A DNA stretch of 64,000 bases from Candidatus Enterousia sp. (GTDB taxonomy: Bacteria; Pseudomonadota; Alphaproteobacteria; Rs-D84). Below, one piece after another: positions 8,332-28,312 of the stretch (its first letter is position 1; each line of letters opens with the position of its first letter). The translations under genes were made by a program, and so were the position numbers. The notes beneath the pieces were generated by a model that saw nothing but the letters and a program-made list of their open reading frames with translations, was not told the DNA's origin and did no database searches. The DNA lies in contig JAZKZR010000010.1 in assembly GCA_045612805.1 (NCBI GenBank), positions 67,136 to 131,135 of the forward strand, in the 5' to 3' direction.

Positions 8332-10842
8332 TTATGCGGCACGATATGCACCACGAAAAGAGGCGAATTGTGTCAAAGCATCTTTACGCATCGGTTTTTG
8401 TTTGTTTTCGGCACTGCCAAAACGCCAACTATAAAGTGGCCCAGTGTGTGAATCACGTCCGGTTTCCAAGAAATCCCAATAAGCCATAAGTTCGTTATAC
8501 ACATCGACGTGTTTTTTGTCCCACTCCCTCAATTCTTTATCGCGACGATCGATACTTGCTTGTGAATTTTTGATTTCCTCTGTGGCCTTGCGAAAATCAT
8601 TGATGTGTTGTTGCTTTTCAGCATTTTCCTGACTGATCAGTTCGTAATCTAAAACAGCGTTCTGATATCCAGGATCGACATTTTGAATGTGATCGATAAT
8701 TGCTTCTATATCAGCCACAGCAACCGTATCAATATCTACAATGCCACGACCAATAAGTCCCAAATCGATAACATCTCTAAAATTTTCCAATTGCTCTATA
8801 AGACCTTTTTTGGAATTTAACAAAGCGGTTAATTCTGCGACCTTCACGTCTTTATCTGGTCCGGCAGCCATAATAGCTGCTCGCAAAACGGGTTCCTGTG
8901 CCTCAATAGGTTCTAATTTTTTCTTGATATCATGGACTTGTTGCAATTGATTCAAAATTTGTTCATACGGTTCAAGTGCATACTGGGCTTTTAATTCATC
9001 TTGACGTCCTTTGGTATCCAAGTCTTTTTGTTTCAAATCTACATCAGCAACCCCACCACCAGGAATCCCCAAACCAACAAGTGCCGCGCCTTTCTTCATA
9101 ACATTTGCATCGCGGTTTAATGCGTCTGCAGATATACCGGCTCTATCATCTGTGACCTTCGCCACTAATGCACTCTTATCGGTAGTATTTTTTGCGTTCC
9201 ACGCAGCATAAGAACTCCTCATACCATTGTTACTAAATTTTTGGTTAAATTTACTGCCCGATTTACGTATGCCGTTAGTCAGGAAAGTTGCACCGTATCC
9301 TATGCCAATAAATGCGGCACGAACACTTTTGTCCAATGCATTGGTAACAAATTGAACCCCGGCATTTTTATTCCAAGATAATTTGTCGTTGGAAAATATA
9401 CTAAACAAATCTTTATCACTGTGCACAGCATCCATAATCTTACTGGTGGTATTGCCATACTTTATGATAGAAAGAACCTCCATCGCTATTTTTACTTGTT
9501 TAATAACATCTTCTTTTGTTTTTCCATTTTTCGGATCTTGCGCTTCTTTTGCGGCCTTCATGATAAGTTCAGAAATAAGATATTTCATTTGACGTCCGTT
9601 TTTCAGTGCACCAGCAAAAGTTTTTGACATGTTTGGATCAGATTGAAATTCTTTCAGTGTCGATTCAAGCCAATTGAACGCCGCCGTTGCATCATTTTTA
9701 CCCTTAAGATTCCCCTTGATAGCGGACGCAGATTCAACAATTTTTCCAAGTCCGTCAGACGGTTTTATATTCGATTTGTCAAGAGCCTTACAGATATCTT
9801 TGGTGGCTGGGTTAAGATATATTCTGTCGCCACGAAATTTCGTATATTTTTTGAACAGGTCTTCATATCCATCGCCAATATCTTTTTTTATCTGTTGCAA
9901 TAATGTCAGCTGGTCGGTACGTTTCGGTGTTATGTAATCTTTGGATTCGGGGTTAGCATAATCGACTTTTTCTTTTGCAACCGCGATGGCCGATGATATT
10001 TGATTGTTTTGTCCTTCGTGCTGCTTAAATGCATCTAAAACCTTTTGATTTCTATATAACAGCAACATGAAATCCGGATAATGAACCTTGAAATTTGCTA
10101 ATTTAGCAGGGTCAACTTCCGGGGTAATCCAACCAGCATAATCATTACTGATAAAACCAACATTGTTAAGACGAAACTCGTCTGCAAGGTTTTCTGCGTC
10201 CTTATCTATACCAGGGATATTTTTGCTATCATCATAAACGAATTCTGTATATTTCTGAGCAATGTTTCGAATTTCTTTTTGAAATTCTGCTTTATTATAT
10301 TCTTTTCTTGCAACCTTGGTTCTTAGTTCGTGTATGTTTACATAAGGCAACCCAAGGTAACGGAACAAATCAGGATTTTTCCTTAATAAATCTTCCAACT
10401 TTGCAACCAAATAACCAATAGCTGCCTCTGTTTCTGGTGTTGCTTTCTTTGTTTCACCCCAAGATTTATCAAATCTATCTTTGTTGTCATCTATAAAATT
10501 AACTACATCATCTTCGCCAAGATCAGCGTAAGATTTACGCTGTGCAACCAACCCAGACATAGCATTTTGCGTATTAAGAAACAATTTTTCCCAATCTTCA
10601 TCGCTTAATTCTGTCGGATTCAACGTTATAAGTTCAAAAAAAACATCCCTGTCTAACGTGAGTTCACCAGTAACAGGATCACGTTTTAACAATTTTGCCC
10701 AATCAGCCATATTTTTGGTGAGATCTTCTTTTTTTACCAAAGATTCAAATTGAACCCAGCGCTCAATATCGTCAGACTTCATCTCATTCAAACGAACAAG
10801 TTTAAAATAAGTTTCTAAAAACTTTTTCATACTCATTGCCAT
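8332..10842 (-). CDS. Large lineage-specific hypothetical protein (about 837 aa, Lys/Asp-rich, predicted coiled-coil); candidate secreted effector
   Basis: Long uninterrupted ORF. The preferred start MAMSMKKFLE has a canonical RBS (aaggag, 6 nt, atg). No enzymatic motif was recognised. Confidence 0.5.
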   Translation of the reverse strand: MAMSMKKFLETYFKLVRLNEMKSDDIERWVQFESLVKKEDLTKNMADWAKLLKRDPVTGELTLDRDVFFELITLNPTELSDEDWEKLFLNTQNAMSGLVAQRKSYADLGEDDVVNFIDDNKDRFDKSWGETKKATPETEAAIGYLVAKLEDLLRKNPDLFRYLGLPYVNIHELRTKVARKEYNKAEFQKEIRNIAQKYTEFVYDDSKNIPGIDKDAENLADEFRLNNVGFISNDYAGWITPEVDPAKLANFKVHYPDFMLLLYRNQKVLDAFKQHEGQNNQISSAIAVAKEKVDYANPESKDYITPKRTDQLTLLQQIKKDIGDGYEDLFKKYTKFRGDRIYLNPATKDICKALDKSNIKPSDGLGKIVESASAIKGNLKGKNDATAAFNWLESTLKEFQSDPNMSKTFAGALKNGRQMKYLISELIMKAAKEAQDPKNGKTKEDVIKQVKIAMEVLSIIKYGNTTSKIMDAVHSDKDLFSIFSNDKLSWNKNAGVQFVTNALDKSVRAAFIGIGYGATFLTNGIRKSGSKFNQKFSNNGMRSSYAAWNAKNTTDKSALVAKVTDDRAGISADALNRDANVMKKGAALVGLGIPGGGVADVDLKQKDLDTKGRQDELKAQYALEPYEQILNQLQQVHDIKKKLEPIEAQEPVLRAAIMAAGPDKDVKVAELTALLNSKKGLIEQLENFRDVIDLGLIGRGIVDIDTVAVADIEAIIDHIQNVDPGYQNAVLDYELISQENAEKQQHINDFRKATEEIKNSQASIDRRDKELREWDKKHVDVYNELMAYWDFLETGRDSHTGPLYSWRFGSAENKQKPMRKDALTQFASFRGAYRAA

Positions 10843-10904
10843 CGCCGACTCCTTTGGTTCTGTCTTGCCCTGGACTTTGTTATTATAGTGCAAATTTGAC
10901 AAAA

Positions 10905-11060
10905 TTTCAAGGGGGAAAGGTGGTCCCCTTCGCTGGCGAAGGGGTGGTGCCGAACGGCACCGGGGTAGTGGTATCGGCGCGTGGCGCCAACTAACTCATA
11001 CCCCACCACTTCCAGTGGTCCCCCCCTTTCCACGGGAAAGGGGAAATCCTCCCGGAATCC
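10905..11060. other. GC-rich structured intergenic element with multiple hairpins
   Basis: gggggaaaggtggtcccc, cttcgctggcgaagg, ggtgccgaacggcacc, ggcgcgtggcgcc and ccagtggtcccccctttcc form stacked hairpins. GC content is far above the surroundings and the stretch is non-coding. Confidence 0.4.
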
Positions 11061-11067
11061 ATTCACA

Positions 11068-11802
11068 ATGACAATGCCGGGCTGGTGCGGTAAAATATGG
11101 CATATGTGGGAAAAAGTCCGGGATTTTGTATTGCGTGCGTTGCCCTATGTCGCGTCCATTTTGGGCGGCGTGTTGTTGTTCACCATATCGCTTGATAATA
11201 TCCAAGACCCAAATGTTGCCGATTTAATCACAAATATATCGGCATCGCTGTTGGCGATACCGCTGGTGTTTTTGCTTTACGATTACACGAATTCGCGTGT
11301 GTCGCGGCGACTAATGGAAACAATGACGGTCAATGTAGACGATCGGATAAACACACTGGTCCTGCATGTGATTTTGGTGTTGCGAAAAATGCTTGGGATG
11401 CGTGGGCGCACGACCCTCGTCAACATAAACAAGATGCAAACACTAAGTGAATCGCACATAATCAAAAAATTGCGCATGGATGCCCGGTGCATAAATTTGC
11501 TGCACGGGTATTACAACGAATTGGAAAATATCATCTATCGATACGGGCGTGAAAGTGTGCTGTCAATTGACAATTTGCGGCTGCTGACGGAACTGGGGCG
11601 GCACATATCGCACGTGGTAAACGAACATCACCTGCGTGGAAATCGGCGAATCCTTGCGCGGCACGTCAAAAACACCATAGAAAAAGTCATAGATTGGCTG
11701 GATTCCGGGGCGGCAATCGCGATGAAGTTCGAAAAATTACTTGCCGATGCGGAATTGGCGGGGCCCGATGCCGCGGCGCAAGAAAGCGCGCCGATGAAAT
11801 AA
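11068..11802 (+). CDS. Hypothetical membrane protein (start uncertain)
   Basis: The ORF has an N-terminal TM segment (LPYVASILGGVLLFTISL). The start was chosen at the first ATG after the structured element. Alternative ATGs lie at 11086 and 11104. Confidence 0.4.
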   Translation: MTMPGWCGKIWHMWEKVRDFVLRALPYVASILGGVLLFTISLDNIQDPNVADLITNISASLLAIPLVFLLYDYTNSRVSRRLMETMTVNVDDRINTLVLHVILVLRKMLGMRGRTTLVNINKMQTLSESHIIKKLRMDARCINLLHGYYNELENIIYRYGRESVLSIDNLRLLTELGRHISHVVNEHHLRGNRRILARHVKNTIEKVIDWLDSGAAIAMKFEKLLADAELAGPDAAAQESAPMK

Positions 11803-12298: not shown

Positions 12299-13015
12299 AT
12301 GCCAGGTATATTTCATTTCAAAAAGGGTAAAATTAGTCCTGTGGTTAGCAACAGGCCGCAAACAGATGAAAACAAAATAAAAAAAGTGAACACTGCATTA
12401 CAAAAGATTGATAAGTTTTTCCATGATATAGAACCATCATTGAAAAATGGCATTTCGCGTGATGAATACTGTGAACAACACCCAGAAATAAAAGATTGCC
12501 AAAATTGCAATTTTTCTTTGACTGCCGATGAAATTATAAAACACAAAATTCCTTATAAAGTCGCGGGTTGCACAGGGCGCGCAAAATTATTTTCTAAATT
12601 TGCCCGCGATATTGGACTTACAGATTTTTTCGTTGCGCCCGCTTTTGTGATTGATGATATAGAAAGAAAAGGGCAAATCAATGGGCATGGGTTAATAGCA
12701 ATTCAATTATCTTATGGATTGTTTCTAATTGACCCAATGAAAGGGAAAACTTTTGAAACGGCAAGGATAAAGGGTAAATGCGTGGTAGATGAAAAAATTG
12801 ATGCGTCGGGAAACGGCAAAAAAGATTACACTATCGCCGCGATTTTAACACCGTACGAATACGATAAAATCAACAGTTATGCAAAAATGAAAAAGATATT
12901 TTTTGGTTGTAAAACCGCAAAAAAAATCTTGCTAAATAAAGCAACGAAAGAATTAAACAAGAAAACAGCGACACACAAAACAGCGCATATTGAAAATCAA
13001 TATCAAAACGGTTAG
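12299..13015 (+). CDS. Hypothetical protein (238 aa), lineage-specific
   Basis: ORF immediately downstream of the tRNA-Lys att-like repeat. Lys-rich, with no recognisable domain. Confidence 0.45.
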   Translation: MPGIFHFKKGKISPVVSNRPQTDENKIKKVNTALQKIDKFFHDIEPSLKNGISRDEYCEQHPEIKDCQNCNFSLTADEIIKHKIPYKVAGCTGRAKLFSKFARDIGLTDFFVAPAFVIDDIERKGQINGHGLIAIQLSYGLFLIDPMKGKTFETARIKGKCVVDEKIDASGNGKKDYTIAAILTPYEYDKINSYAKMKKIFFGCKTAKKILLNKATKELNKKTATHKTAHIENQYQNG

Positions 13016-14970: not shown

Positions 14971-15064
14971 GGATGGTTGGCAGAGCGGTTGAATGCATCC
15001 GACTTGAAATCGGACAAGGTATGAAATAAGACCTTCGGGGGTTCAAATCCCTCACCATCCGCCA
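14971..15064 (+). tRNA. tRNA-Ser (anticodon UGA)
   Basis: 94 nt with acceptor ggatggt/accatcc, D-arm gcagagcggttgaatgc, anticodon loop cttgaaa (UGA), a long variable arm (aaggt...acctt), T-arm gggggttcaaatccctc and an encoded CCA. Confidence 0.85.
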
Positions 15065-15065
15065 C

Positions 15066-15100
15066 AAAAATCAAACGCCCATTCGGGCGTTTTATTTTTG
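15066..15100 (+). terminator. Rho-independent terminator after tRNA-Ser
   Basis: Hairpin aacgcccattcgggcgtt followed by ttatttttg. Confidence 0.7.
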
Positions 15101-15227
15101 TCTTGTATGGCATCGGGTTGGGCACTGGCAACATTTGTTGCCCGGGTTCACACGATAGTTGGCAAGAACAAGCGCAAAAGCGCGCGGTTCGCGCCTTACG
15201 TGTGGTGAGCGCACGCGAACAAATCCC

Positions 15228-16133
15228 TCACTTTTTCGCAAAAAAATCATAGAAATTAAACCACTGGGTTGGGGCGGCGATGGCGGCGCTTTCCAAAAAT
15301 TCGGCAAAGCCGTTCGCCATATTGTGGACATTTTTATCATCTAATTTTTTAATAACCAATTTATACTTTTCGGCACCAATGTTTAATAAGGCCACCGCAA
15401 ATACGGGGTGCGACATGGCACGCGCAAACCTGAACACACCAATCGGCAATTCGCAATCGCGCCCCAGTATTTGCGCACTTATTGTCTTGCCCGGCGTTGC
15501 GGCGGATACCCGATCGCCCGCCATCATAACCAATTCGCCGTTAGCCAGGGAATCAAACATTTCGCCGGCCGTTCCAACATTCATATCTTCCACCGCATGA
15601 ATAATCGTGTTCGGTCGCACGGAATGCGCGGATATAAAACGATAAAAAACGCCTGTTTGCCCAATTTGTTGAAATGCGTGAATTTTTATATCTTGGCCAC
15701 CAGGGAACGCGGACAATGCACCGATATTACCGACATGACCGCAAATTAAAAAAGCACCCATTTTTTGTTTAATCAGATTTTGAAATTCGCGCCAATCGGC
15801 ATCTTCTTGGACGATAAATTTTATGCGATTTTTTTTGTCGCACATCGCCACCATTTTATCGACCAAGGAATCCGCAAAACACCGAATATGCCGCGCGGGG
15901 GAAAATATTGTCGGTTCCGTATTTCGTGCAATTTGATATTCATTCAAAATTCGCCGATATTCGCGCGAAAACCGCCTGGTGGATTTTGCGCCCATACCGA
16001 TTACGGTTGCAATAATGCGGACCCAAAATTTCATAAACCGGATGCCAAAAATTCGGTACACCCACAACAACAGCCCCAATCGCCACATGCCCGCACCACG
16101 TTCCTGTTGCTGATACCATTTCCCTGTGTTCAA
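15228..16133 (-). CDS. Lipid A biosynthesis lauroyl/myristoyl acyltransferase-like protein (LpxL/HtrB family), APE-cluster associated
   Basis: 301 aa with an N-terminal TM segment and an LpxL-like acyltransferase fold pattern. It sits at the edge of the APE-like cluster. Confidence 0.55.
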   Translation of the reverse strand: MNTGKWYQQQERGAGMWRLGLLLWVYRIFGIRFMKFWVRIIATVIGMGAKSTRRFSREYRRILNEYQIARNTEPTIFSPARHIRCFADSLVDKMVAMCDKKNRIKFIVQEDADWREFQNLIKQKMGAFLICGHVGNIGALSAFPGGQDIKIHAFQQIGQTGVFYRFISAHSVRPNTIIHAVEDMNVGTAGEMFDSLANGELVMMAGDRVSAATPGKTISAQILGRDCELPIGVFRFARAMSHPVFAVALLNIGAEKYKLVIKKLDDKNVHNMANGFAEFLESAAIAAPTQWFNFYDFFAKK

Positions 16134-16165
16134 AGTGACTTGCCTTTGGTTGTTTTTATTTTATA

Positions 16166-16669
16166 ATGCGTTTTATGCAGGTATTTATAGCAAACATTGA
16201 TTCAATAAGCAAGAACACCGATGATTTTATGGCACTGTTGTCGGCCGATGACCGTGCGCGCGCGAAAAAATTCCAAAAACAAACACGCAAATTGCAATTT
16301 GTATTGGGGCATTTAATGGTGGCAAACATCGGCAAAAAATATGCATCTATTGCGCACAGGGATAATGTAGTTGTTGTTGCAACCGCTTCAAATGCGCGCC
16401 TTGGTGTTGATATAGAAAATGCATCTGTTAAACGTGACTTTGTTGCAGCGTCGGAAATTATTGGGATAAAGCCGTCAAAAACATTATTCAATTTTTATAA
16501 AAACTTCACAGAATCCGAGGCGATATATAAACTGGGGACCACGCCGGCGTGCACCCATTTTATAACATATGGCGATTATTTAATCTGTGTTGTGGCAAAT
16601 AAAAAATTTGCAATGCCGCGCGTGCATAATTTTGATGCGCTATCAATTTTGACGGCAAAACAGGAATAA
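16166..16669 (+). CDS. 4'-phosphopantetheinyl transferase (Sfp/EntD type)
   Basis: 167 aa with ...RARAKKFQKQTRKLQFVLGHLM... and the GVDIE motif. Size and motifs are typical of PPTases. It is adjacent to a cluster with two ACPs. Confidence 0.6.
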   Translation: MRFMQVFIANIDSISKNTDDFMALLSADDRARAKKFQKQTRKLQFVLGHLMVANIGKKYASIAHRDNVVVVATASNARLGVDIENASVKRDFVAASEIIGIKPSKTLFNFYKNFTESEAIYKLGTTPACTHFITYGDYLICVVANKKFAMPRVHNFDALSILTAKQE

Positions 16670-18790
16670 AGATATCAAATACCCAAATGTCAATCCCAAT
16701 CCCAGTGTAATACCCATTGATTGAATTAAAAAGAAACTTGCAAACGCCAATATTCCAAACCCAACCAAACTGGTCAGGAAAGAAAACAAAACTGGTTTTA
16801 TTTCGTGGCTGTCCATCGCGTTAATATGAAAAATTGAATAATCCAAGCTTAGACCAATAACTATGAATAAACTTAATAAATGAAAGAATGTTATCGGTTG
16901 CCCAAACCATGTTAATACTGCGGCGGTTAGTCCAATGGCTAATACGGATGGTGCCAAATAAATCAAAGCTTTTTTCCTGTATAAAAATAGTAATAATAAC
17001 AACAATGCAACACCACACACGGCCAATAATTGATACGATTCATGCGAATACCGTTCCATTAAATCGTTCATTTGTTGTGCGGGCGAAATGGTTATCGCGT
17101 TTGGGGACGTTGTTGCAAAATCGGCATTAACATGTGCAACAAGATACATATATTTTCCATCATCAAACATAAATTTGCCTAATAGATTTTCCAATGTTTT
17201 ATTATCACGAATATCAGAAATTTGAATAGCCGGCGTTTCAACAAATTTTGGTGCCTTCCGAATCCCCAGCTCTTTTTGAATTTTTCGTGATTCCGATTTA
17301 TATAACGCACGAATTAGGTTTTGATTTTCAATTTGCCTTTCGATTGATGGAATAATGGTTGCGATATCAAAAAAATATCCTGATTCATCTTTGATTATTT
17401 CAGAAGTGCGTAAAGCATCATTTAGTGTTTCACCACGAATAAGCAAAAATTTAGACGTATTTACCCCGTTCAGGTCTTGCATTAACGATTCTGCGGCCAA
17501 TAGTTCCGAATTTGGTCGATATAATTGCGACATATTGTTTTTCGTTTTCATAAAAGGTATTGTTGCGACTATCGCCAAAATTATTGCACCGATTACAAAC
17601 GGACGATATTTTTTAGAAACGGCATGTGGCATTTTTACGGATGTTTTTTTTGCATCTATTTTTGTTGGCATAAATATCCGCCAACCTAAATAAATCGTGG
17701 CAAGCCCGGTAATGGTAAACACGGAAATCTGTTGCAACAAAGATACCCCGGAAAAAGCCAGTGGCAAAAAGCACACAACCGTCGTTAAAAAAGAATGCAA
17801 AATGTTTTTATGGATATTGTTGGCGTCTTTGTGAATCATCGCACTGATGAAATGGAACGAATAATCTATGCCCAATCCAATCAATGTCACACCAAACACA
17901 AATGTCAAAATATGCGGTTCGGCAAAACATAAAAATAAAGCCAACGCCCCAGATACAAACCCCAATCCCAAACTTAATACAACGGGCAACAGTGTCGCGG
18001 TTCTGCGAAATAATAACCAATTTAGCAATATGGCCATGGCCAACGCCAGAAATGAAAAAACACTTAATTGCAATTTGCTTGTTTGAGTCATATTCGCAGT
18101 GTGTATCGGGATTCCAGACAAGAAAACCCGCGCATCATCACCATTGTATTTTTTTATCATATTCGTCAAAGAATCAACGGTTTTTACCATGTCGTTCGTG
18201 TCGCGTGCATTAACATCCATGGAAATCAAAATATAATGATCGGGGGCAACATATTGCCATAAAAATCCGTCACGCGCGGTCCATTTGCCGTTCACCAATT
18301 TCAATTCGTTTACATAATTTGTGGACAAAAGAAAGGGGTCGTCGGTCAAACTTAAAACACTTGGCGCCATTGACCCCGAAACACTTGCAACCGCATTATC
18401 TGTAATTTTGGCAAATTCACCATTTTGAAGTATTTCGCGATAATTCGAACTTAAAAAAGAATTCCTGTGAATACGTAATTGGTTGATTGTATCAGATACG
18501 GAAAAATCGGTGGTTATAATCGATAATTTATCAAATTCATCCGCATCCAAAATGCGCGTTATTTCATTTGCGGTCTGTTTTGCGGTATTTAGATTTTCAG
18601 ATTTAATGACAACGTTAACAACATTTGAAAATTTGTTTGTTAAATTCCCGATGGGCCAATCGGCATAATTTATTTCGATCAAAGAATTAAGGTTGGTCTG
18701 AATCGACAATGGCGTGCGCCAAAGGCAAGTCGCCAAGAAAGCCACCAAACACACGATTCCAAAGATAATTTTTTTAACATTTAATTTCAT
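16643..18790 (-). CDS. MMPL/RND-superfamily membrane exporter (ApeM-like)
   Basis: 715 aa with two blocks of TM helices separated by large periplasmic domains, the typical MMPL architecture. It is adjacent to the GT-LolA-like gene. Confidence 0.7.
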   Translation of the reverse strand: MKLNVKKIIFGIVCLVAFLATCLWRTPLSIQTNLNSLIEINYADWPIGNLTNKFSNVVNVVIKSENLNTAKQTANEITRILDADEFDKLSIITTDFSVSDTINQLRIHRNSFLSSNYREILQNGEFAKITDNAVASVSGSMAPSVLSLTDDPFLLSTNYVNELKLVNGKWTARDGFLWQYVAPDHYILISMDVNARDTNDMVKTVDSLTNMIKKYNGDDARVFLSGIPIHTANMTQTSKLQLSVFSFLALAMAILLNWLLFRRTATLLPVVLSLGLGFVSGALALFLCFAEPHILTFVFGVTLIGLGIDYSFHFISAMIHKDANNIHKNILHSFLTTVVCFLPLAFSGVSLLQQISVFTITGLATIYLGWRIFMPTKIDAKKTSVKMPHAVSKKYRPFVIGAIILAIVATIPFMKTKNNMSQLYRPNSELLAAESLMQDLNGVNTSKFLLIRGETLNDALRTSEIIKDESGYFFDIATIIPSIERQIENQNLIRALYKSESRKIQKELGIRKAPKFVETPAIQISDIRDNKTLENLLGKFMFDDGKYMYLVAHVNADFATTSPNAITISPAQQMNDLMERYSHESYQLLAVCGVALLLLLLFLYRKKALIYLAPSVLAIGLTAAVLTWFGQPITFFHLLSLFIVIGLSLDYSIFHINAMDSHEIKPVLFSFLTSLVGFGILAFASFFLIQSMGITLGLGLTFGYLISLFLFCRQN

Positions 18791-20072
18791 CGGGCGAATC
18801 CGTTTTTATGCGTTTGAAATCAATCGTAATAGTCATGCCATTTTTATATGTGATAACAATTTGTTTCAAATCTTTTGTATCCCCGGTCAGTGTCAAAGAT
18901 TCCAAAAATTCGGCCACAGCGGAAATTTTGGGGGTCGCAACCAACACCCAATTCTTTTTAATTTCCGTATAATCCGCGTTAAAAGCGGTCAAAAACATGC
19001 CCATATCGCCGTCCATCATATCTTTTATCATGGATTGAACCTGGGAAAAATGGGGCAGGGCAGATAGAGCATTCGTATCACCATTTATACAATACGAATC
19101 CAGTGTGGACGTGAAGTCAAAGGCATTTGGTTTTTGCTGTTTCCATTTGAAGCCTGCGCCCTTTACAAATTTTACTGTGCCGGTTGCACGAAAAGTTTTG
19201 GTCGATTCCGGTAAAGTTTTTGTTTGCGTATATGATGCGTGCACGGTTCCCAAATTGTCGGTAAAGGTTTTTAATGTGGCGGGCATTTCGGTGATGTTTT
19301 GCGCATTGGCCGCGCCACAGATTATCATTGACACCAAAAATAAATTTTTAACCTTTTTGAACGCTTTCTTAATCAACCACCACGGCAATCCACAACATAG
19401 GTATATATGCAGCAAACTTATATAAAAATTATCCCGCCAAACATGGAAATGCGATATTCCGGTTTTGGGGTATATAACACGCGTTTCCGTGGTGACAATC
19501 CGAACCCCCGCGCGGTACAGTTTTACAAAAATTTCAATATCAATACCCATACGCAAAAAATGCAAAGATGATAATACGCGTTCGGTTTCGGCCAATGGAT
19601 ACACGCGAAATCCGCACATCGCATCGGGCATGTGCCGGTTCATTGTTTCAACCGCAACCCAAAAATTTGTAATTTTGCGCCCAATCAACCGGGACCGTGG
19701 TGCCGATGAATCATACACCGGTTGCCCCATAACAAGTGTATTTGGATTTTTTCTGGCAAGTTCTATGAATCTTGTAATATCATTTATATCATGTTGTCCA
19801 TCCGCATCAATTTGCAGTGCATTCGAAAACCCAAGTTGTAATGCCTTTCTAAACCCGGTTATCATGGCGGCACCCTTGCCGGCATTTTTTTCGTGTTTTA
19901 TATATGTATAACCATATTTTGTGCATGTGTGTTGTAATTTTTTAGATTGTTCCTTCATACTGCCGTCATCGACAACAATCACCGGAATTTTATGTTCATA
20001 AATTTGGCCGGCAACCCCAACAAATGCATCCGCATGATTAAAACAAGGTATTATTATGACGGGCTTAAACAT
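18774..20072 (-). CDS. Fusion protein: N-terminal family-2 glycosyltransferase, TM helix, C-terminal LolA-like outer-membrane-lipoprotein-carrier domain (ApeJ plus ApeL equivalents)
   Basis: Single 432-aa frame. Residues 1-230 have GT2 motifs (IIIPCFN, VVDDGS, DADGQHD, CGFRVY). A hydrophobic segment GLPWWLIKKAFKKVKNLFLVSMIICGAANA follows, then a beta-rich domain resembling LolA/LppX. No stop separates the domains. Confidence 0.6.
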   Translation of the reverse strand: MFKPVIIIPCFNHADAFVGVAGQIYEHKIPVIVVDDGSMKEQSKKLQHTCTKYGYTYIKHEKNAGKGAAMITGFRKALQLGFSNALQIDADGQHDINDITRFIELARKNPNTLVMGQPVYDSSAPRSRLIGRKITNFWVAVETMNRHMPDAMCGFRVYPLAETERVLSSLHFLRMGIDIEIFVKLYRAGVRIVTTETRVIYPKTGISHFHVWRDNFYISLLHIYLCCGLPWWLIKKAFKKVKNLFLVSMIICGAANAQNITEMPATLKTFTDNLGTVHASYTQTKTLPESTKTFRATGTVKFVKGAGFKWKQQKPNAFDFTSTLDSYCINGDTNALSALPHFSQVQSMIKDMMDGDMGMFLTAFNADYTEIKKNWVLVATPKISAVAEFLESLTLTGDTKDLKQIVITYKNGMTITIDFKRIKTDSPDEIKC

Positions 20073-20074
20073 CT

Positions 20075-21772
20075 TTATTCCTTTATAACAATTTTACCGG
20101 CCGAATATTTTACATCGCCATTTTCATAACAGAAACTAAATTCATCTTCATTTAATTTATTTAATTCAAAATGCACCATTGTATCCGGCAAAATCAAATT
20201 GGTAAATTTTAGTTTTATAATATCATAAGTTTTAACATTTTTATGAAAAAACATTTGAATGAATTTAATAACGAAATGCAGTTGCATCACACCCGGTAAA
20301 ATAGGGCAATTTTCAAAATGTCCCTTGAAATATGCGGAATCCCCCAAAAAGATAAAATCCGCGGATAAAAAATTGTCGTTTTTTACCAAGTTTTTTGCGA
20401 TTGGGTCCGCCACCGCGGAACGCAAAATTTCGGCAATTTCGGACTTTAATATCTTGCCTTGGGTATTCATCGGTATTTTATTAACAATTCTAATTTTTCG
20501 TGGCAATGCGACATTTGGAAAATATACCGACAGCCAATTTTTTATATCAGATACAAATTCATGCCGCCCATGCGCGGTTATAAAATCTTTGCCCGCATCG
20601 GTTAGGGTTAAAACGCACCCAATAACAATTCGTCCATTTTGATTCACGGTTGTCACATAACAACCATCAACGAATTTATGCGACCCCAATTTTTCTTCGT
20701 ATTCCGGCAATGATATTCGTTCTTCGGCAATTTTAACAATTCTGTCTGCACGCCCCTTTAACAAGAATTGCCTTTCATTTTGCACCTCTATCACATCCGA
20801 CATTTGAAAAGGACGTGCACAGCAAAATTCCGAATCCGCAATTATACAATTATTTTCATCTAAACCGATTTTAACATCATCAAAAGCCGTCCAAGACGGC
20901 CCGTTTTTCTGTTGCCGAAATGCAACGCCACCGGTTTCGGTACTGCCAAAAACCTCAAAAGGTGATGCGCCAAAGATTTCGAATGCTTTTTGCGATGTTT
21001 CAGGCCTTAACAAACTGCCCGAAGAAAAAATGCCAATGCAATTATTTGGAAAATCGTATTGGTTTTGATATTTTGTTATACCATCCAAGAACGAAGGTGT
21101 GGTCGCAAATAATACATTGGCAAATTTATGTTGCGATGCCTGTAATTCTTCGGGTGTAAAAATCATATTTGTGTCAACCGCGATGCCGGCGGAAAGTGGA
21201 ATTAAAAAACGCCACAGCAAACCGTACATATGATATGGTGCGATTGATGCAATCATCACGGGATTTTTGACAAAATTATCGTGTTGCATTTTATTATGCA
21301 TGGCAACTTCGGCCGCCAGATTATGAAATGTTTTACAGATTTTTTTTGGTGCGCCGGTACTGCCCGATGTGAAAAAATATATCAATCGGTCATCCATATC
21401 ACAGAAATCCCAATTGCCACCAAAATCTTGATTGATATCAACAAATGTAAAGCCGGCAAAATCAAATTTTTGGTCGGTCACAATTGTGTCGGTTAATTCA
21501 CGCAGTGTATCGATATTTTGTTCCGTTAGCATCGCGGGCAAAATCACATCTTTGCCGGCCTGCATCAACCCCATAAAGGTCACATAAAACATATAAATAT
21601 CATTTGGAATAAATAAAATCACCGTCTTGGCATCCGTGCGGGCAAATATGTTCGCCATGCGCGCAACATCGTTTGAAAATTCATGGAACGACACACCCGT
21701 CCCACCGCGATAGAAAACCGTCCGTGTCGGTGCGATATTATTGATAAAAAACTTATTTATTTCCGCGAACAT
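20075..21772 (-). CDS. Fusion protein: AMP-dependent synthetase/ligase (acyl-ACP synthetase-like adenylating enzyme) plus C-terminal FabA/FabZ-like hotdog dehydratase (ApeH plus ApeI equivalents)
   Basis: About 565 aa. The adenylation motifs FFTSGSTGAPKK, FGSTETGG and ...GKILKSE are followed by hotdog-fold motifs AYFKGHFENCPILPGVMQLHFV. Confidence 0.65.
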   Translation of the reverse strand: MFAEINKFFINNIAPTRTVFYRGGTGVSFHEFSNDVARMANIFARTDAKTVILFIPNDIYMFYVTFMGLMQAGKDVILPAMLTEQNIDTLRELTDTIVTDQKFDFAGFTFVDINQDFGGNWDFCDMDDRLIYFFTSGSTGAPKKICKTFHNLAAEVAMHNKMQHDNFVKNPVMIASIAPYHMYGLLWRFLIPLSAGIAVDTNMIFTPEELQASQHKFANVLFATTPSFLDGITKYQNQYDFPNNCIGIFSSGSLLRPETSQKAFEIFGASPFEVFGSTETGGVAFRQQKNGPSWTAFDDVKIGLDENNCIIADSEFCCARPFQMSDVIEVQNERQFLLKGRADRIVKIAEERISLPEYEEKLGSHKFVDGCYVTTVNQNGRIVIGCVLTLTDAGKDFITAHGRHEFVSDIKNWLSVYFPNVALPRKIRIVNKIPMNTQGKILKSEIAEILRSAVADPIAKNLVKNDNFLSADFIFLGDSAYFKGHFENCPILPGVMQLHFVIKFIQMFFHKNVKTYDIIKLKFTNLILPDTMVHFELNKLNEDEFSFCYENGDVKYSAGKIVIKE

Positions 21773-22310
21773 CCATATGCCTTTTGTGAATAATAAACAC
21801 AACCACGATCATCATAGCAATCAGAATATAGGAAATCAAACCGTTAAACAAAACCCAAATTTCATCAGATAAAAATACGGTTACGCAAGAAACCGCCGCC
21901 AAACAAAACATAAAAATCGCCCACGCATATGTTGCCCGATGCGCATATTGTTTGTCGGTCGCGCCCAATTTATACCCCATCTTTGTTGCAAACTTTTCAA
22001 TCAAAGGCACCCCACGTAATGATAGCGCGAACATTAAACACACCGAAATATTCATCAAAACGGGGTACAGTTTTAGAAAAACATCATCATTAAATATAAT
22101 TAAACCCAAACCAAACAATAAAACGCATATAAATATCCATATGTTTTTATTGCGTACAAACGAAATACCCGCGGCGGCCAATAAAAATAGTGCCAAAAAA
22201 CGCACCGCAACGTGCCGCTTTAACGCAAAAAACACGACAAACGGATAGATAACAGTAAACCCAACACCAAGAACCTTAATGATTTTTATTAACGATTTTT
22301 TCAATGGCAT
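21753..22310 (-). CDS. Integral membrane protein of the APE-like cluster (ApeG-like); start uncertain, overlaps ACP gene
   Basis: Four to five TM helices. The ATG chosen is at MPLKKS. The track ORF extends to 22409, overlapping the upstream ACP. Confidence 0.45.
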   Translation of the reverse strand: MPLKKSLIKIIKVLGVGFTVIYPFVVFFALKRHVAVRFLALFLLAAAGISFVRNKNIWIFICVLLFGLGLIIFNDDVFLKLYPVLMNISVCLMFALSLRGVPLIEKFATKMGYKLGATDKQYAHRATYAWAIFMFCLAAVSCVTVFLSDEIWVLFNGLISYILIAMMIVVVFIIHKRHMDVRGNK

Positions 22311-22530
22311 CAACCATGTCTTGTAAAGTGCGAATTTGTTTGAAATCATCGGGTTCAACCTTGCAGCCAATGATTTTTTGCAATCGAACCACAAGGTCCA
22401 CGGCATCAATTGAATCCAAATCTAAATCTTCAATCAATAATGATTCTGGTTTCAATTTGTCCGAATCTATATCAAATTCTTTGACCAAGATATTTTTTAT
22501 TTCTTTAAAAATTTCGTCTTTTGTGTACAT
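22276..22530 (-). CDS. Acyl carrier protein
   Basis: 84 aa with the DLDSIDAVDL phosphopantetheine-attachment motif. Confidence 0.8.
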   Translation of the reverse strand: MYTKDEIFKEIKNILVKEFDIDSDKLKPESLLIEDLDLDSIDAVDLVVRLQKIIGCKVEPDDFKQIRTLQDMVDAIEKIVNKNH

Positions 22531-22536
22531 ATCAAT

Positions 22537-22812
22537 TTACTCCAATGTAATGTTTTTTGATTCCGCAATATACGTTGCCAAACGTGCCACAGATTTGAAA
22601 TATTCCTTGTTGGCTTCTTTATCCGCCTTAAAATTTACCTGATATTTTTTCTTTAGCGCCATACCCAATTCCAACGCATCAATGGAATCAAGCCCAAGCC
22701 CAGTTCCAAAAAGTGGCGCAGACGCATCAATATCATCGGCCGTCACGTCTTCTAAATCCAACGCAGATACGATTAGTTCTTTGATTTCACGTTCCAATAA
22801 TTCCCGTTTCAT
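22537..22812 (-). CDS. Acyl carrier protein (second tandem ACP)
   Basis: 91 aa with the LGLDSIDALEL motif. Confidence 0.8.
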   Translation of the reverse strand: MKRELLEREIKELIVSALDLEDVTADDIDASAPLFGTGLGLDSIDALELGMALKKKYQVNFKADKEANKEYFKSVARLATYIAESKNITLE

Positions 22813-22872
22813 ATCACATCCTTATGCAGGCAATACTAACAATATACAAATAAAAATTCAAGGAAATTATAC

Positions 22873-23607
22873 CTAAAACAATATGTTTTTGGCTTTTTCT
22901 GTGATATCAACCGCGATGGCGCGTTTATTTGTTTTTTTTATCGTATTATAACAAATCAATGACATGGGGATAATATCATACACGGACGTCTTATTCCCGA
23001 TGCCCCACCATTTTTGTGTTTTCCCCAATATTGGTGGTGTATTGGTAATTTTTATGGGCAAAATGTTTGCCCCGGTCGCCATTTGCAGGTATGCAAACCC
23101 GCGGTGCAATCGTATTATTTTGTTCGACACCGTCCGTGTTCCTTCGGGAAAAATAACGATATTATATCCCCGTGCCAAAATATCCGAACCGTTCGCAATA
23201 AATTCGTCTGGCTTCATCGTGTTGGACAGATATGTGTTGCCGATAACCCGGCGAACAAACACATTTCTAAATAAACTTTCCTTTACAACACACACTGAAT
23301 TTGGAATTCGTGATACCAAGATAACAACATCAATCAAAGAAGGGTGGTTGGCAATCACAATTGTCCCACGCAGTTTTTTTAATTGTTTGCACGCCGGGCA
23401 ATTTACCCTGATTAAACGCAAAGCACACAATAACCATATGAACGCACGCCAAGAAAGATGAATTGTGTTTATAAAAATTTTTCGCTGTTTATCGGACCTG
23501 GACACCAATAAAATAACGGGGAATATCGCGGACCCAATCAGCAAACCGCCCAATCCAAAGATACAAAAACAAAACGCACAAAGAAGTGACCGTATAAATT
23601 TAATCAT
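22873..23607 (-). CDS. 1-acyl-sn-glycerol-3-phosphate acyltransferase-like (lysophospholipid acyltransferase family, ApeD-like)
   Basis: 244 aa with an N-terminal TM segment. The NHPSLIDV (HX4D) and FPEGTR motifs are present. Confidence 0.75.
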   Translation of the reverse strand: MIKFIRSLLCAFCFCIFGLGGLLIGSAIFPVILLVSRSDKQRKIFINTIHLSWRAFIWLLCALRLIRVNCPACKQLKKLRGTIVIANHPSLIDVVILVSRIPNSVCVVKESLFRNVFVRRVIGNTYLSNTMKPDEFIANGSDILARGYNIVIFPEGTRTVSNKIIRLHRGFAYLQMATGANILPIKITNTPPILGKTQKWWGIGNKTSVYDIIPMSLICYNTIKKTNKRAIAVDITEKAKNILF

Positions 23608-24232
23608 TTTGCATTGTCCAACTTTTTGTTGTCACGCAATTTGTTCGCCCTTGCAAAAAATCCACCATTGTTTCCAATGTTAAAAGATTTGCATCGCAAT
23701 CGCCTTTTGTGATTTTAATTCCGCGTTTGCCGTGTTTTTTTATCATAAATGCCAATCCAAATGCGTTGTGTGGCGTGTCCAACAATGGCGCGTACATATC
23801 CGGATTATGTTCACCCGCAAACACAACCATAACATCGCAGGGTTCCATTAACGCCTTTAATATCGCCATTCCAAGGGTGTTATCGCCCGCCGCAATTGAT
23901 GTATAACTGTTTGTGTTTCGGGTAAGTAATGAAAACAGCCCCGCGGCGGCATTATGCACAGAATTACTGAATCCCGCCGGTGACATTTCATGTTCTTCAA
24001 AAAATTGTTTGATTAACTGTATCGTTTGTCCCCATTCGCCGAATTTAGATGCAAACACGGTCGTATAATCTTGTGCCCCTTGGACAATTTTCCCGGCGAT
24101 TCCAACGGCGATTTTTTCAATGTTCGACATACGACGACGAACCATGGATGGAATAAAAGAAAAATCCGGCAATTTTTCATCCGCTGATTCTTGCCAAATA
24201 ATAAAATCATCAATATAGATTTTGTTGTTCAT
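23600..24232 (-). CDS. Beta-ketoacyl synthase N-terminal-like protein lacking the active-site Cys (chain-length-factor-like, ApeC-like)
   Basis: About 210 aa. Internal ATG at MNNKIYIDDFIIW. A KS-like fold with FSNSVHNAAAG in place of the catalytic Cys. Confidence 0.5.
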   Translation of the reverse strand: MNNKIYIDDFIIWQESADEKLPDFSFIPSMVRRRMSNIEKIAVGIAGKIVQGAQDYTTVFASKFGEWGQTIQLIKQFFEEHEMSPAGFSNSVHNAAAGLFSLLTRNTNSYTSIAAGDNTLGMAILKALMEPCDVMVVFAGEHNPDMYAPLLDTPHNAFGLAFMIKKHGKRGIKITKGDCDANLLTLETMVDFLQGRTNCVTTKSWTMQND

Positions 24233-24308
24233 ACTTGAAAAATACTTTTTTTTATAGCACAGTGGCATTATATGAAAAAAATCATAATTTGCAAGCGGGT
24301 TTATGTAT

Positions 24309-25445
24309 ATGTCGGTGATATTACAAGATTTGGGTTTTGTTTGTGCGCTTGGGGTGTCGCACGATGAAATTGTTGAAAACGCACGGCGCGGCGACACGTC
24401 GGGTATGTTTCGTGTGATGCCGACCGTGGCGGAAACATCGGTTCCGTTTGGTTCGGTGAATATCGAAACGCACGAAATAATGCGATGCTATGATTTATTA
24501 CTTGCGGCATTGCGACAAATTGAACCGGCAATATCGAAATTAAAATCTGATTATGCACCGGACAGAATTGGAATAGTTATCGGTGCAAGTAATACCGGCG
24601 TGCACGAGGCGCAAAAACATTTAAACATTGCATTGGGAACAGGCAAATTGCCACATGAATTTTCCTTGTCCGAACTAGAATTATATTCACCAACCGCATT
24701 TTTGGTTGAAAAAACTGGGTTCGCCGGCCCCGCATATACCGTATCAACGGCCTGTTCATCCAGTGCCAAGGTTTTTCAAGATGCCAAGGATTTAATAGAA
24801 CAGGACATCTGTGACGCGGTTTTGGTTGGTGGTGTTGATGCGCGTTGTGATTTTGCACTGAACGGGTTTAATGCACTATCGGCACTTAGTTATAAACACA
24901 CAAACCCAATGTCGCAAAATCGTGACGGAATCAACCTTGGCGAAGGCGCGGCTCTTTTCATAATGACGCGTGGGGCGGTCGGTATAAAAATGTTGGGCGT
25001 GGGCGAAAGTTCCGATGCGTATCATTTAACAAGTCCGGATCCAACCGGGGCCGGTGCCATTGCTTCTATGAATTCTGCATTATTAAATGCTGGTTTAACG
25101 CCGGAAAAAATTGATTTTATAAATATGCACGGAACGGGAACGATTGCCAACGATGCGATGGAATCTTTGGCTATAAATTCGGTTTTTGGTGATAAAACGT
25201 TGTGTGCATCAACAAAACCATTAACCGGTCACACCCTTGGGGCGGCCGGCGCGGTAAGTGTGGCACTATCGTGGCTTATGATAAAACACCAATTTGTAAT
25301 ACCGCACATTTTTGATGGTGAATATGGTGCGGATTGTGCAAAGATAAATTTGGCGACCACGCAATGCAAAAAAAACATAAACAATGTGTTGTGCAACGCC
25401 TTTGCTTTCGGGGGCAGCAACGCAAGTGTAATAATTGGACGGTAA
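24309..25445 (+). CDS. Beta-ketoacyl-ACP synthase (KS, ApeO-like)
   Basis: Active-site TACSSS. The HGTGT and GHTLGAAG motifs are present. Divergent from the CLF-like gene. Confidence 0.8.
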   Translation: MSVILQDLGFVCALGVSHDEIVENARRGDTSGMFRVMPTVAETSVPFGSVNIETHEIMRCYDLLLAALRQIEPAISKLKSDYAPDRIGIVIGASNTGVHEAQKHLNIALGTGKLPHEFSLSELELYSPTAFLVEKTGFAGPAYTVSTACSSSAKVFQDAKDLIEQDICDAVLVGGVDARCDFALNGFNALSALSYKHTNPMSQNRDGINLGEGAALFIMTRGAVGIKMLGVGESSDAYHLTSPDPTGAGAIASMNSALLNAGLTPEKIDFINMHGTGTIANDAMESLAINSVFGDKTLCASTKPLTGHTLGAAGAVSVALSWLMIKHQFVIPHIFDGEYGADCAKINLATTQCKKNINNVLCNAFAFGGSNASVIIGR

Positions 25446-25446
25446 A

Positions 25447-25917
25447 ATGGGCAAATATGATTTAACAAAACTTATACCACAACGCACGCCGATGATTTTC
25501 TTGTCGGACATTGAAAATTTTGATTATGAAAACCAAACCTTGGTTGCGCGGGTTGATGTTCGTGATCCAGATTTATTGTTTGATAAAAATCTTGGTGGCA
25601 TTCCGTCTTGGGCGTGTTTGGAATTTATGGCACAAAGTGTCGCGGCCTATGTCGGATTGGGCGATTTGCATGAAGACCCAAATGCAATGCCCGCGGTCGG
25701 GTTTGTTTTGGGGTCGCGCAAAATATCTGTATCGGCCCCCGTGTATTTGGCCGGACATTCATACTTTGTGCATGTTAAATCTTTATTTTGTGACCAAAAC
25801 ATTGCGTCATTTGATTGTCAGATTCTTGATGAAAATAACAATGTCGTTGCGGCCGGCGCACTAAACGCCTTTCGACCGGATGATATAACAAAATTTATGG
25901 AGAACAGAAATGAATAA
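25447..25917 (+). CDS. Hotdog-fold 3-hydroxyacyl-ACP dehydratase (ApeP-like)
   Basis: About 156 aa with a hotdog pattern (...GIPSWACLEFMAQSVAAYVGL...). It is translationally coupled to the upstream KS. Confidence 0.6.
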   Translation: MGKYDLTKLIPQRTPMIFLSDIENFDYENQTLVARVDVRDPDLLFDKNLGGIPSWACLEFMAQSVAAYVGLGDLHEDPNAMPAVGFVLGSRKISVSAPVYLAGHSYFVHVKSLFCDQNIASFDCQILDENNNVVAAGALNAFRPDDITKFMENRNE

Positions 25918-26635
25918 AACGGTTCTTATTACGGGTGCAAGTCGTGGCATAGGGCGCGCAATCGCGATATATCTTGCGCGGGCGGGTTATGATTTGGTGT
26001 TACATTATAATTCAAATTCTGCAGCGGCGAATGAAACACTAAACGCGGTTAAATCGTTTGGTGCGCGGGCGCGGTTATTGTGTTTTGATATCGCCAACCG
26101 TGTGCAGACAAATGATGTTATAAACGCGGATATTGCACAGTATGGCGCATATTGGGGCGTTATTTGCAACGCGGGGATAAACCAAGATGCCCCGTTCCCA
26201 GCGATTGAACCCGACGCATGGGACAGGGTGGTTCACACAAACCTGGACGGACTTTATAATGTGTTGCATGCGACGGTTATGCCGATGATTTCTGCGCGCG
26301 CCGGCGGTCGCATCGTGGCGTTGTCGTCCGTGTCGGGATTGATTGGTAACCGTGGCCAGGCAAACTATGCCGCATCCAAGGCCGGAATTATTGGCGCGTG
26401 TAAATCTTTGGCAATTGAATTGGCGCGACGTAATATAACGGTAAATTGTATTGCGCCGGGTATTATCGAAACTGATATGACCGCTGATTTGCCTGATGGT
26501 ATTGTTGATCAGGCAATACCGATGCGTCGCGCCGGTCGGCCCGACGAAGTGGCAAGTTTGGTTGCGTATTTATTATCTGACGATGCGGGTTATATCACGC
26601 GCCAGGTTATATCTGTAAATGGGGGGCTTATCTAA
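25910..26635 (+). CDS. fabG: 3-oxoacyl-ACP reductase (SDR family, FabG/ApeQ-like)
   Basis: TGASRGIGRAIA cofactor motif. Catalytic S...YAASKAG, and the IAPGIIETDM motif. Confidence 0.85.
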   Translation: MNKTVLITGASRGIGRAIAIYLARAGYDLVLHYNSNSAAANETLNAVKSFGARARLLCFDIANRVQTNDVINADIAQYGAYWGVICNAGINQDAPFPAIEPDAWDRVVHTNLDGLYNVLHATVMPMISARAGGRIVALSSVSGLIGNRGQANYAASKAGIIGACKSLAIELARRNITVNCIAPGIIETDMTADLPDGIVDQAIPMRRAGRPDEVASLVAYLLSDDAGYITRQVISVNGGLI

Positions 26636-26636
26636 A

Positions 26637-27869: not shown

Positions 27870-28282
27870 AAACATTAATATCACTTTTGTCTGTGGGAAC
27901 TTTGGCGGCATGCAGTGCGGCGGGCCCAATTATGCGCCCGATTCATGAAGACCTACATTCTGCGCGTGCCGACGGTTTTCTAAATCCATCGATTGAACTA
28001 TCTTTTGGAAAGTCAGAAATTACAGGTAAAAATCTTGGAACATGGGTGTCCAACAAGAAAACAAACTCCGTAAACAAAGATGCGTCCACGGCATGTCAAA
28101 TCGCGTTCCTGTCCGCGGTAAAATCATTACAGGATAGGGCTGTTCGTGAAGGCGGCAACGCGGTGACAAATATTCATAGTTTCTATGACAAAGTTCCAGA
28201 ATGGAGTGAAACGACATACCGTTGTAAAGACGGCCATTTGATGAGTGGCGTGGCCCTGCGTGGAACGGTGGTGAAAAAATAA
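27866..28282 (+). CDS. Cluster-associated lipoprotein (138 aa)
   Basis: Signal peptide with the lipobox LAAC. It overlaps the KS stop (coupled). Terminal gene of the + operon. Confidence 0.55.
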   Translation: MKTLISLLSVGTLAACSAAGPIMRPIHEDLHSARADGFLNPSIELSFGKSEITGKNLGTWVSNKKTNSVNKDASTACQIAFLSAVKSLQDRAVREGGNAVTNIHSFYDKVPEWSETTYRCKDGHLMSGVALRGTVVKK

Positions 28283-28312
28283 CAAACGCCCGTTTGGGCG
28301 TTTTTTATTTTA
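28283..28312 (+). terminator. Rho-independent terminator closing the + operon of the APE-like cluster
   Basis: aacgcccgtttgggcgtt followed by ttttatttt. Confidence 0.75.

Follow-up and report, generated by a model that had tools for sequence, protein, structure and literature searches.

Within a 64,000-nucleotide stretch of the genome of a Candidatus Enterousia sp. (contig JAZKZR010000010.1, forward-strand positions 67,136 to 131,135; hereafter, the window), an aryl polyene (APE)-type gene cluster, recognized by its Pfam matches (including ApeI-like and ApeP-like ones), contains a single open reading frame (ORF) in which an ApeJ-type glycosyltransferase (GT) of family GT2 and an ApeL-type LolA-like carrier are joined (Table 1). 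The frame starts with ATG and runs over 432 codons with no internal stop, which at the window's own stop-codon frequency would happen by chance with a probability of ~8e-8. The original prediction, that one uninterrupted 432-aa frame holds both domains, is borne out by the ORF call, Pfam, and NCBIfam. Its premise that the two are normally separate genes with a thioesterase between them also agrees with the Escherichia coli cluster, where apeJ (GT), apeK (thioesterase), apeL (LolA-like), apeM (RND), and apeN (LolB-like) are separate genes (PMC8253772 Table 1), and with the comparison loci L001 and L011-L016. The parts and the cluster type are known; what is new is the loss of ApeK together with the fusion of ApeJ to ApeL through a retained internal signal peptide.

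APE clusters are reported to rank with the most widespread biosynthetic gene clusters of bacteria (bioRxiv 10.1101/2020.12.19.423268). In Xenorhabdus (X. doucetiae), ApeJ is proposed to attach the N-acetylgalactosamine (GalNAc) of a glycerol-phosphate-GalNAc APE-lipid backbone, and ApeL, ApeM, and ApeN are proposed to carry the APE lipid to the outer membrane (bioRxiv 10.1101/2020.12.19.423268), the roles of these three being assigned from weak homology only (PMC8253772). The fused ORF resembles the E. coli and Xenorhabdus arrangement in its operon place after the AMP-ligase and dehydratase and before the RND transporter, in its GT2 and LolA-like families, and in the proposed roles. It differs in that ApeJ and ApeL form one ORF, that ApeH and ApeI are fused, and that neither ApeN nor a match to an ApeK-type 4HBT thioesterase was found among the cluster ORFs (window positions 15000-28300). 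Moreover, the annotation of E. coli ApeJ is glycosyl/acyltransferase; in the fused ORF, the GT domain stands alone, and an acyltransferase is a separate gene.

Table 1. The fused ORF, its parts, and the neighboring genes of the APE-type cluster (positions within the window).
Feature	Position	Strand	Remarks
Whole fused ORF (ApeJ-type GT2 + ApeL-type LolA-like)	18774..20072	minus	432 aa, 48.7 kDa
GT-A (GT2) catalytic domain	19434..20072	minus	residues 1-213; Pfam, NCBIfam, AlphaFold2, Foldseek
Helix A (DNFYISLLHIYLCCGLPWWL)	19374..19433	minus	residues 214-233
Basic stretch IKKAFKKVKN	19344..19373	minus	residues 234-243; 5 Lys
Signal-peptide h and c regions (LFLVSMIICGAANA)	19302..19343	minus	residues 244-257; predicted signal peptidase I site between A257 and Q258
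Mature LolA-fold domain	18777..19301	minus	residues 258-432; 19.5 kDa
Chain length factor (CLF)-like ketosynthase (KS)	23600-24397	minus	first in transcription order
ApeD-like acyltransferase	22873-23607	minus	
Two acyl carrier proteins (ACPs)	22537-22812; 22276-22530	minus	LDSID motif
IspA-like membrane protein	21753-22409	minus	
AMP-ligase (ApeH-like) fused to ApeI-like dehydratase	20075-21802	minus	575 aa; 2 nt upstream of the fused ORF
ApeM-type RND/MMPL (HAE3/HpnN-like) transporter	16643-18790	minus	start overlaps the fused-ORF 3' end by 17 nt
Lipid-A-type acyltransferase	15228-16133	minus	
KS	24303-25445	plus	
ApeP-like dehydratase, ketoreductase (KR), and second KS	to 27869	plus	follow the KS at 24303-25445

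By Pfam match, DXD-type motif, and fold, the N-terminal half has the features of a GT-A GT2 glycosyltransferase. Pfam Glycos_transf_2 covers residues 6-131 with 55.5 bits against a cut-off of 23.3, and of the acidic residues in the motifs DDGS (D35, D36) and QIDADGQHD (D89, D91), D36, D89, and D91 show no variation, and D35 almost none, across 29 homologs, fused and unfused. An AlphaFold2 model of the fused ORF, for which an alignment of 81 sequences was the input, reached a mean predicted local distance difference test (pLDDT) score of 84.8, with values >90 in the GT domain. Foldseek comparison of this half with the PDB retrieved the membrane-associated polyprenyl-phosphate glycosyltransferases ArnC and GtrB (E ~1e-9 to 1e-10), which are its best structural matches, while the best NCBIfam match was PpgS-like (polyprenyl-phospho-GalNAc synthase; residues 6-195). 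The GT half shares with these proteins the GT-A fold, the DXD/DAD motif, and a membrane-proximal C-terminal helix, but it scores far under the equivalog cut-offs, PpgS included, and has one hydrophobic helix in place of a two-helix transmembrane hairpin. In GtrB and ArnC, two C-terminal transmembrane helices form such a hairpin. It is not present in the unfused homologs, which end after one helix and a basic tail, nor in the fusion, because there the second hydrophobic segment is the LolA signal peptide. The similarity to PpgS is consistent with GalNAc-phospholipid chemistry and is suggestive of GalNAc transfer to an APE lipid intermediate; the acceptor is probably a glycerophospholipid-type intermediate and not polyprenyl phosphate.

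The single helix at the end of the GT domain, helix A, is short, uniformly hydrophobic, and conserved (residues 216-229); a GLP kink that is nearly invariant comes after it, and then a basic, amphipathic tail. Unfused GTs also terminate in helix A and then a basic tail. We infer that helix A is a monotopic or re-entrant membrane anchor. Together with the basic stretch ahead of LFLVSMIICGAANA, this second hydrophobic helix had been overlooked in the original prediction.

The C-terminal half scores just above the threshold of Pfam LolA (residues 274-425; 24.4 bits versus 23.6), a marginal match, and is also matched by a LolA2_flexi (flexirubin)-like NCBIfam model (residues 244-425; E 7e-12, 45 bits versus an equivalog cut-off of 125). 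In the AlphaFold2 model, this half has pLDDT values of 86-92, and its Foldseek matches in the PDB include Francisella LolA (8t5j; E 7e-11, TM-score 0.78 over the whole target) and the further LolA structures 2w7q, 4ki3, 6f3z, and 7z6x, the LolAs of Pseudomonas, Yersinia, and E. coli being among the matches. The LolA-like fold that had been proposed for this domain is thus what the model gives. The ancestral form of the domain, soluble and periplasmic with a signal peptidase I-type signal, is a further likeness to the LolA chaperone, from which it differs in its low identity (only 13-19%), in having no LolCDE association, in its internal signal, and in its cargo, which is presumably the APE lipid. 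Two cysteines, C328 (19089-19091) and the C-terminal C432 (18777-18779, ...DEIKC), co-vary: all 34 of the 34 proteins with the first have the second, and distant homologs are without both. This pattern suggests a disulfide that would pin the C-terminus and would be formed in the periplasm.

Between the two halves, the model draws one long helix over residues 211-251, and pLDDT falls below 50 at residues 244-256 alone, that is, in the signal h-region. The original prediction saw a signal-anchor-like separator here. A hydrophobic export-type segment does occupy residues 244-257, but as judged from its sequence, this is the whole Sec signal peptide that the LolA-like gene ancestrally had and not a newly evolved signal anchor. 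Free LolA-like proteins start with ordinary Sec signals (MKKFLAILTILFSTTCLA before QQ, MKKLCLFLSLLIPLSAHTA before P, and MKKLILFTLLLCGTANA before QNITEMP), and the internal segment of the fused proteins is homologous to these signal peptides residue for residue. It keeps the ancestral-type layout of a basic n-region, an h-region of ~10-12 residues, G at -5, and A-x-A, while both the ancestral GT C-terminal tail and the n-region that began the ancestral LolA signal peptide have gone into the basic stretch at residues 234-243. The result, an internal n-h-c signal with A-x-A between a cytoplasmic-side and a periplasmic module, is the layout of a polyprotein.

Across 30 fused proteins, the h-region sequence varies freely, while position -3 is A in 28 (V and S in one each), position -1 is A in 29 (G in one), and position -5 is G in 27. 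The stretch before the h-region carries 2-6 K/R (median 4; 5 in the window), and the uncharged span to the predicted cut measures 14-17 residues. The longest apolar run has a median of 12 in the fused proteins and likewise of 12 in 68 free LolA-like signal peptides (p = 0.11); the segment has therefore not been lengthened toward a signal anchor, whose h-region is typically considerably longer than that of a signal peptide, as put in a passage of PMC2120157. No lipobox is conserved at the junction across the 30 fused proteins. Lipoprotein processing was considered and rejected, as a Cys in the h-region occurs in only 7 of 75 sequences and stands in no lipobox context.

The fusion is real and selectively maintained. 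When 5.8 billion proteins were searched, ~30 cluster representatives of 430-438 aa came up with 100% query coverage and 55-93% identity, drawn from many assemblies, and the next-ranked matches were unfused GTs of 238-250 aa (~50-65% identity). Among the species representatives of GTDB, independent metagenome-assembled genomes (MAGs) of Alphaproteobacteria from the rumen and gut of cattle, goat, and sheep (L006-L010) carry this in-frame ORF with 97-71% identity, and unfused relatives there include 'Candidatus Enterousia'. The ratio of nonsynonymous to synonymous substitution rates (dN/dS) against fused relatives is 0.04-0.23, alike in the GT domain, the helix/tail/signal segment, and the LolA half. 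A homopolymer frameshift in the assembly or a decaying gene pair could be imagined, given that the junction lies in A-rich sequence and that the unfused locus L067 is only a 1-nt frame change away from the fused state. Such an artefact or pseudogene is nevertheless extremely unlikely: the same in-frame junction recurs with differing nucleotide sequences across many independent assemblies, dN/dS is far below 1 in every segment, and the GT catalytic residues are invariant. Because independent MAGs and ~30 protein clusters reproduce the architecture, sequencing error, which the original prediction had named as a possible source, is ruled out. In public data, the fused ORFs are labeled 'glycosyltransferase' only, an annotation that conceals the carrier domain, and the APE literature found in our searching makes no mention of an ApeJ-ApeL fusion architecture. 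It is a real and lineage-conserved but modest variation on a known pathway, in uncultured rumen and gut bacteria.

The loci compared display the architecture in several states. The GT, 4HBT thioesterase, LolA-like protein, and ApeM are separate genes in L001/2, L011-L016, and the Bdellovibrionota locus L018. Elsewhere, the thioesterase is lost, and the GT and LolA-like genes are adjacent or overlap in different frames (L004/5, with a 52-nt spacer; L017; Dyella L032). In L066/L067, they meet in an ATGA stop/start overlap with a Shine-Dalgarno (SD)-like GGTGAG, inside an A-run, and in the window, L003, and L006-L010, they are fused. Two further candidates for fusions were rejected: in L011-L016, a triple fusion with the thioesterase in the middle fails because stops follow the GT even though GT and LolA share a frame, and in Dyella L032, the two ORFs overlap in different frames. 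At L067 4015-4035, the ATGA overlap is embedded in A-runs (GAGAAAATGAAAAAATTG), and one added A would give an in-frame ...RK-MKKL..., the junction type of the fused protein P0012 (KKMGGK-MKKLFLLF). This A-run context is slippage-prone, so that a change of +/-1 nt switches between two genes and one.

Neighbor-joining trees were computed on GT plus mature LolA with 200 bootstraps, and for the single domains as well. The fused protein P0032 of L003 pairs with the unfused L004 as its sister in 200/200 bootstraps (single-domain trees: 93-99%). With the unfused L067, the other 29 fused proteins form a group in 200/200 bootstraps; they are monophyletic without it in 0/200, so that L067 nests inside the fused clade. 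These placements imply that fusion took place independently at least twice and that a third fusion or else a fission occurred as well. The tree also suggests at least two losses of the thioesterase, one in the L017 lineage and one in the lineage that would have led to L004, L003, and the fused clade. The series of states shows how the fusion came about: (i) the thioesterase gene between the GT and LolA-like genes was lost first; (ii) the GT stop was then lost at an ATGA-type overlap, for which a 1-nt change in an A-run is sufficient; and (iii) the entire Sec signal peptide of the carrier was thereby enclosed within the protein.

Searches with the LolA half placed this fusion among other forms of the carrier. 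Against 1.84 billion representatives, it gave 119 matches, of which almost every one was a stand-alone protein of 180-220 aa; the fused clade was collapsed to one representative. A separate word-index search gave 9 matches, missed the fused clade, and yielded P0121. Two proteins, P0171 and P0244, are a different fusion, in which an AMP-ligase and an ApeI dehydratase are followed by a signal-peptide-like segment (AFLAGIALSFLSLFAGAA before TNP) and a LolA_3-like domain. The gene for P0244 (L068 993-2924) is complete and lies downstream of two ACP genes, with an ApeM homolog (28% identity, E 3e-38) coming next after it, and thus the fusing of a cytoplasmic APE enzyme to a downstream exported carrier is recurrent. 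Clusters of this type seem to be without an intervening GT or thioesterase. Other long matches of the LolA half, namely P0227 (an esterase with an N-terminal LolA-like region), P0208, and P0153, were set aside as unrelated or repeat-driven.

We consider it probable, on balance, that the ORF encodes a maintained ApeJ-ApeL fusion that is inserted by way of its signal peptide, probably cleaved, and works as its counterparts do in unfused clusters. The GT domain would fold in the cytoplasm and sit on the inner leaflet via helix A, with the basic stretch remaining cytoplasmic, and the internal signal peptide would insert N-in/C-out through Sec, exporting the LolA-like domain to the periplasm. Signal peptidase I would probably cut between ANA and QN (A257 and Q258). 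The products would be a 29.3-kDa GT, anchored in the membrane at its C-terminus by the former signal peptide, and a 19.5-kDa carrier free in the periplasm. The released carrier would work with the neighboring ApeM RND transporter just as it does where the genes are unfused, and the fusion would mainly fix 1:1 co-expression and membrane targeting, with no new mechanism. A GT-in/LolA-out topology is the most economical one in view of the basic loop between helix A and the h-region and of the exported free homologs; conserved signal features at free-homolog length favor cleavage into two proteins over a permanent bitopic enzyme-carrier; and since lineages have passed more than once between the fused and the unfused form, the covalent link would add little mechanism. 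This repeated switching suggests that the fusion is close to functionally neutral. The original prediction of a bitopic export relay is thus supported in its layout, a cytoplasmic GT and a periplasmic LolA-like domain, whereas the direct hand-over of lipid from the GT to its own carrier gained no support; the lipid must still cross the membrane, presumably via ApeM.

Several points weigh against a cleaved fusion of this topology. A large N-terminal domain can reportedly block cleavage at an internal signal, as the title of a 1988 study by Schmid and Spiess on a eukaryotic protein has it. Were helix A, with its hydrophobic moment of 0.08, a genuine transmembrane helix, as it might in principle be, the topology would be inverted. 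Conservation of the ANAQNITEMP block may have a cause other than cleavage, the search for ApeN (DUF3261/LolB-like) gave no match among the cluster ORFs, and ApeL is termed 'cytoplasmic' in the Grammbitter preprint (bioRxiv 10.1101/2020.12.19.423268). The blocking effect of N-terminal domains also speaks for the most serious alternative, a possible though clearly less probable one, in which the segment is a permanent signal anchor that keeps the LolA-like domain attached at a distance of ~7 residues from the inner membrane's outer face. Beside ApeM, this domain would then be a membrane-bound first acceptor, a role for which lipid-anchored LppX with MmpL7, or LptC, offers a parallel. The topology evidence is identical for this uncleaved form; the uncharged span N243-T261, of 19 residues, is just enough to cross a membrane; and long-range shuttling is not obviously needed in a cluster that encodes no LolB-like receptor. 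Were the form real, GT and carrier might be linked across the inner membrane in one synthesis-and-export unit with ApeM that evolved repeatedly (compare the AMP-ligase-dehydratase-LolA layout), a possibility that we hold just as tentatively. However, A-x-A and the G at -5 are kept in 27-29 of 30 diverged proteins, the h-region is no longer than in the cleaved free signals although signal anchors are typically longer (the same passage of PMC2120157), and fused and unfused forms interconvert inside one clade, which implies equivalence to a soluble carrier.

Two other readings were considered. If helix A and the signal-like segment formed a two-helix transmembrane hairpin in the style of GtrB and ArnC, which the GT half resembles, the LolA-like domain would be a cytoplasmic lipid-binding module, and the uniform hydrophobicity of helix A and the 'cytoplasmic LolA-like' wording of the preprint would fit. 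We regard this as unlikely, since the connecting loop, with its 2-6 K/R, is cytoplasmic by the positive-inside rule, the homologous free proteins carry N-terminal Sec signals, and the co-varying cysteines suggest a disulfide, which forms in the periplasm. Less likely still is internal translation initiation, by which translation beginning within the ORF would supply the LolA-like protein separately, leaving the fused chain as a by-product. This is plausible for L003, whose fused ORF retains the old ribosome-binding site and start (GGGGGGG-AAA-ATG), a strong SD, and Met is also kept at the old start in P0012, P0013, P0016, P0027, and P0028. In the window and in L006-L008, however, the ancestral LolA start codon is now GTT (Val241, 19350-19352 in the window), and it is ATC in L009 and ATT in L010. 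The nearest TTG, GTG, and ATG codons of the window (L246, V247, M249) would give a product with no n-region and a truncated h-region, hence not exportable, and no SD lies at the proper distance. With the old start lost and no nearby start giving an exportable product, the carrier of the window lineage is made only as part of the fusion. In L007 (96% identity), codon 237 (~3709-3711), which belongs to the basic stretch, has changed from Ala to Met (ATG), a possible new internal start (MFKKVKNLFLV...), where the closest relatives have GCG or GTG.

For the cleaved fusion that we prefer, the nearest mechanistic precedent known to us is a bacterial polyprotein that is split at an internal signal peptide, the cytochrome b/c1 precursor FbcH of Bradyrhizobium. 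Both are one ORF with a membrane- or cytoplasm-side module and a periplasmic module around an internal signal-peptide-like segment, cut after export in FbcH; the families and pathway are unrelated, and cleavage is shown for FbcH and predicted here. A precedent for a tethered carrier, should the fusion be uncleaved, is the mycobacterial LppX, which has a LolA-like fold. As stated in an excerpt of PMC11539658, this lipoprotein takes part with the RND transporter MmpL7 in phthiocerol dimycocerosate (PDIM) export and so pairs an RND/MMPL lipid exporter with a carrier, as the window does. The tether of LppX is lipidation, whereas here it would be a transmembrane link to a biosynthetic enzyme.

The natural fusions link ApeJ and ApeL functionally and in stoichiometry, and they show the thioesterase to be dispensable in this lineage. 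They also constrain topology, as the C-terminus of ApeJ must be cytoplasmic if the LolA domain is exported. To our knowledge, it is uncommon for a bacterial cytoplasmic enzyme and an exported domain to be joined through a retained, probably cleavable internal signal peptide, and this looks like a recurrent natural example of such joining, arising from one-nucleotide changes at overlapping stop and start codons. If cleaved, the fusions would represent a class of bacterial polyproteins that recurs in nature and is resolved by signal peptidase I, and their junctions would serve as natural reporters of a cytoplasmic ApeJ C-terminus; if uncleaved, the finding would be of greater interest.

The remainder of the cluster supplies the APE core set, for which the list of core genes in a figure legend of the preprint served as the criterion (bioRxiv 10.1101/2020.12.19.423268): KS, CLF, ApeI- and ApeP-type dehydratases, KR, two ACPs, AMP-ligase, ApeD-type acyltransferase, and the ApeM transporter. 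The 17-nt overlap between the end of the LolA-like sequence and the start of ApeM is also maintained in relatives. The fusion of AMP-ligase and ApeI-like dehydratase is kept in all relatives examined, whether GT and LolA are fused or not (565-575 aa). A conserved 167-aa ORF at 16166-16669 on the plus strand, convergent with and overlapping the 3' end of ApeM, is syntenic in L001, L003, L004, and L067. It was considered as an ApeN/LolB-like partner and rejected, its weak match being to a 4'-phosphopantetheinyl transferase (HetI) instead. The 111-aa ORF that overlaps it at 16156-16491 on the minus strand is probably spurious.

Two ORFs at the far side of the cluster, 27866-28282 (plus) and 28305-28724 (minus), have no family match, and downstream of the cluster, ORFs of 856, 273, and 238 aa (8332-10902, minus; 10981-11802, plus; 12299-13015, plus) have no Pfam match at E <= 0.001. 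The longest-ORF calls of the divergent CLF (minus) and KS (plus) overlap by ~95 nt (24303-24397), where relatives have a gap of ~40-50 nt. The true starts are therefore probably internal, and 24303-24397 would be the divergent promoter region of the cluster.

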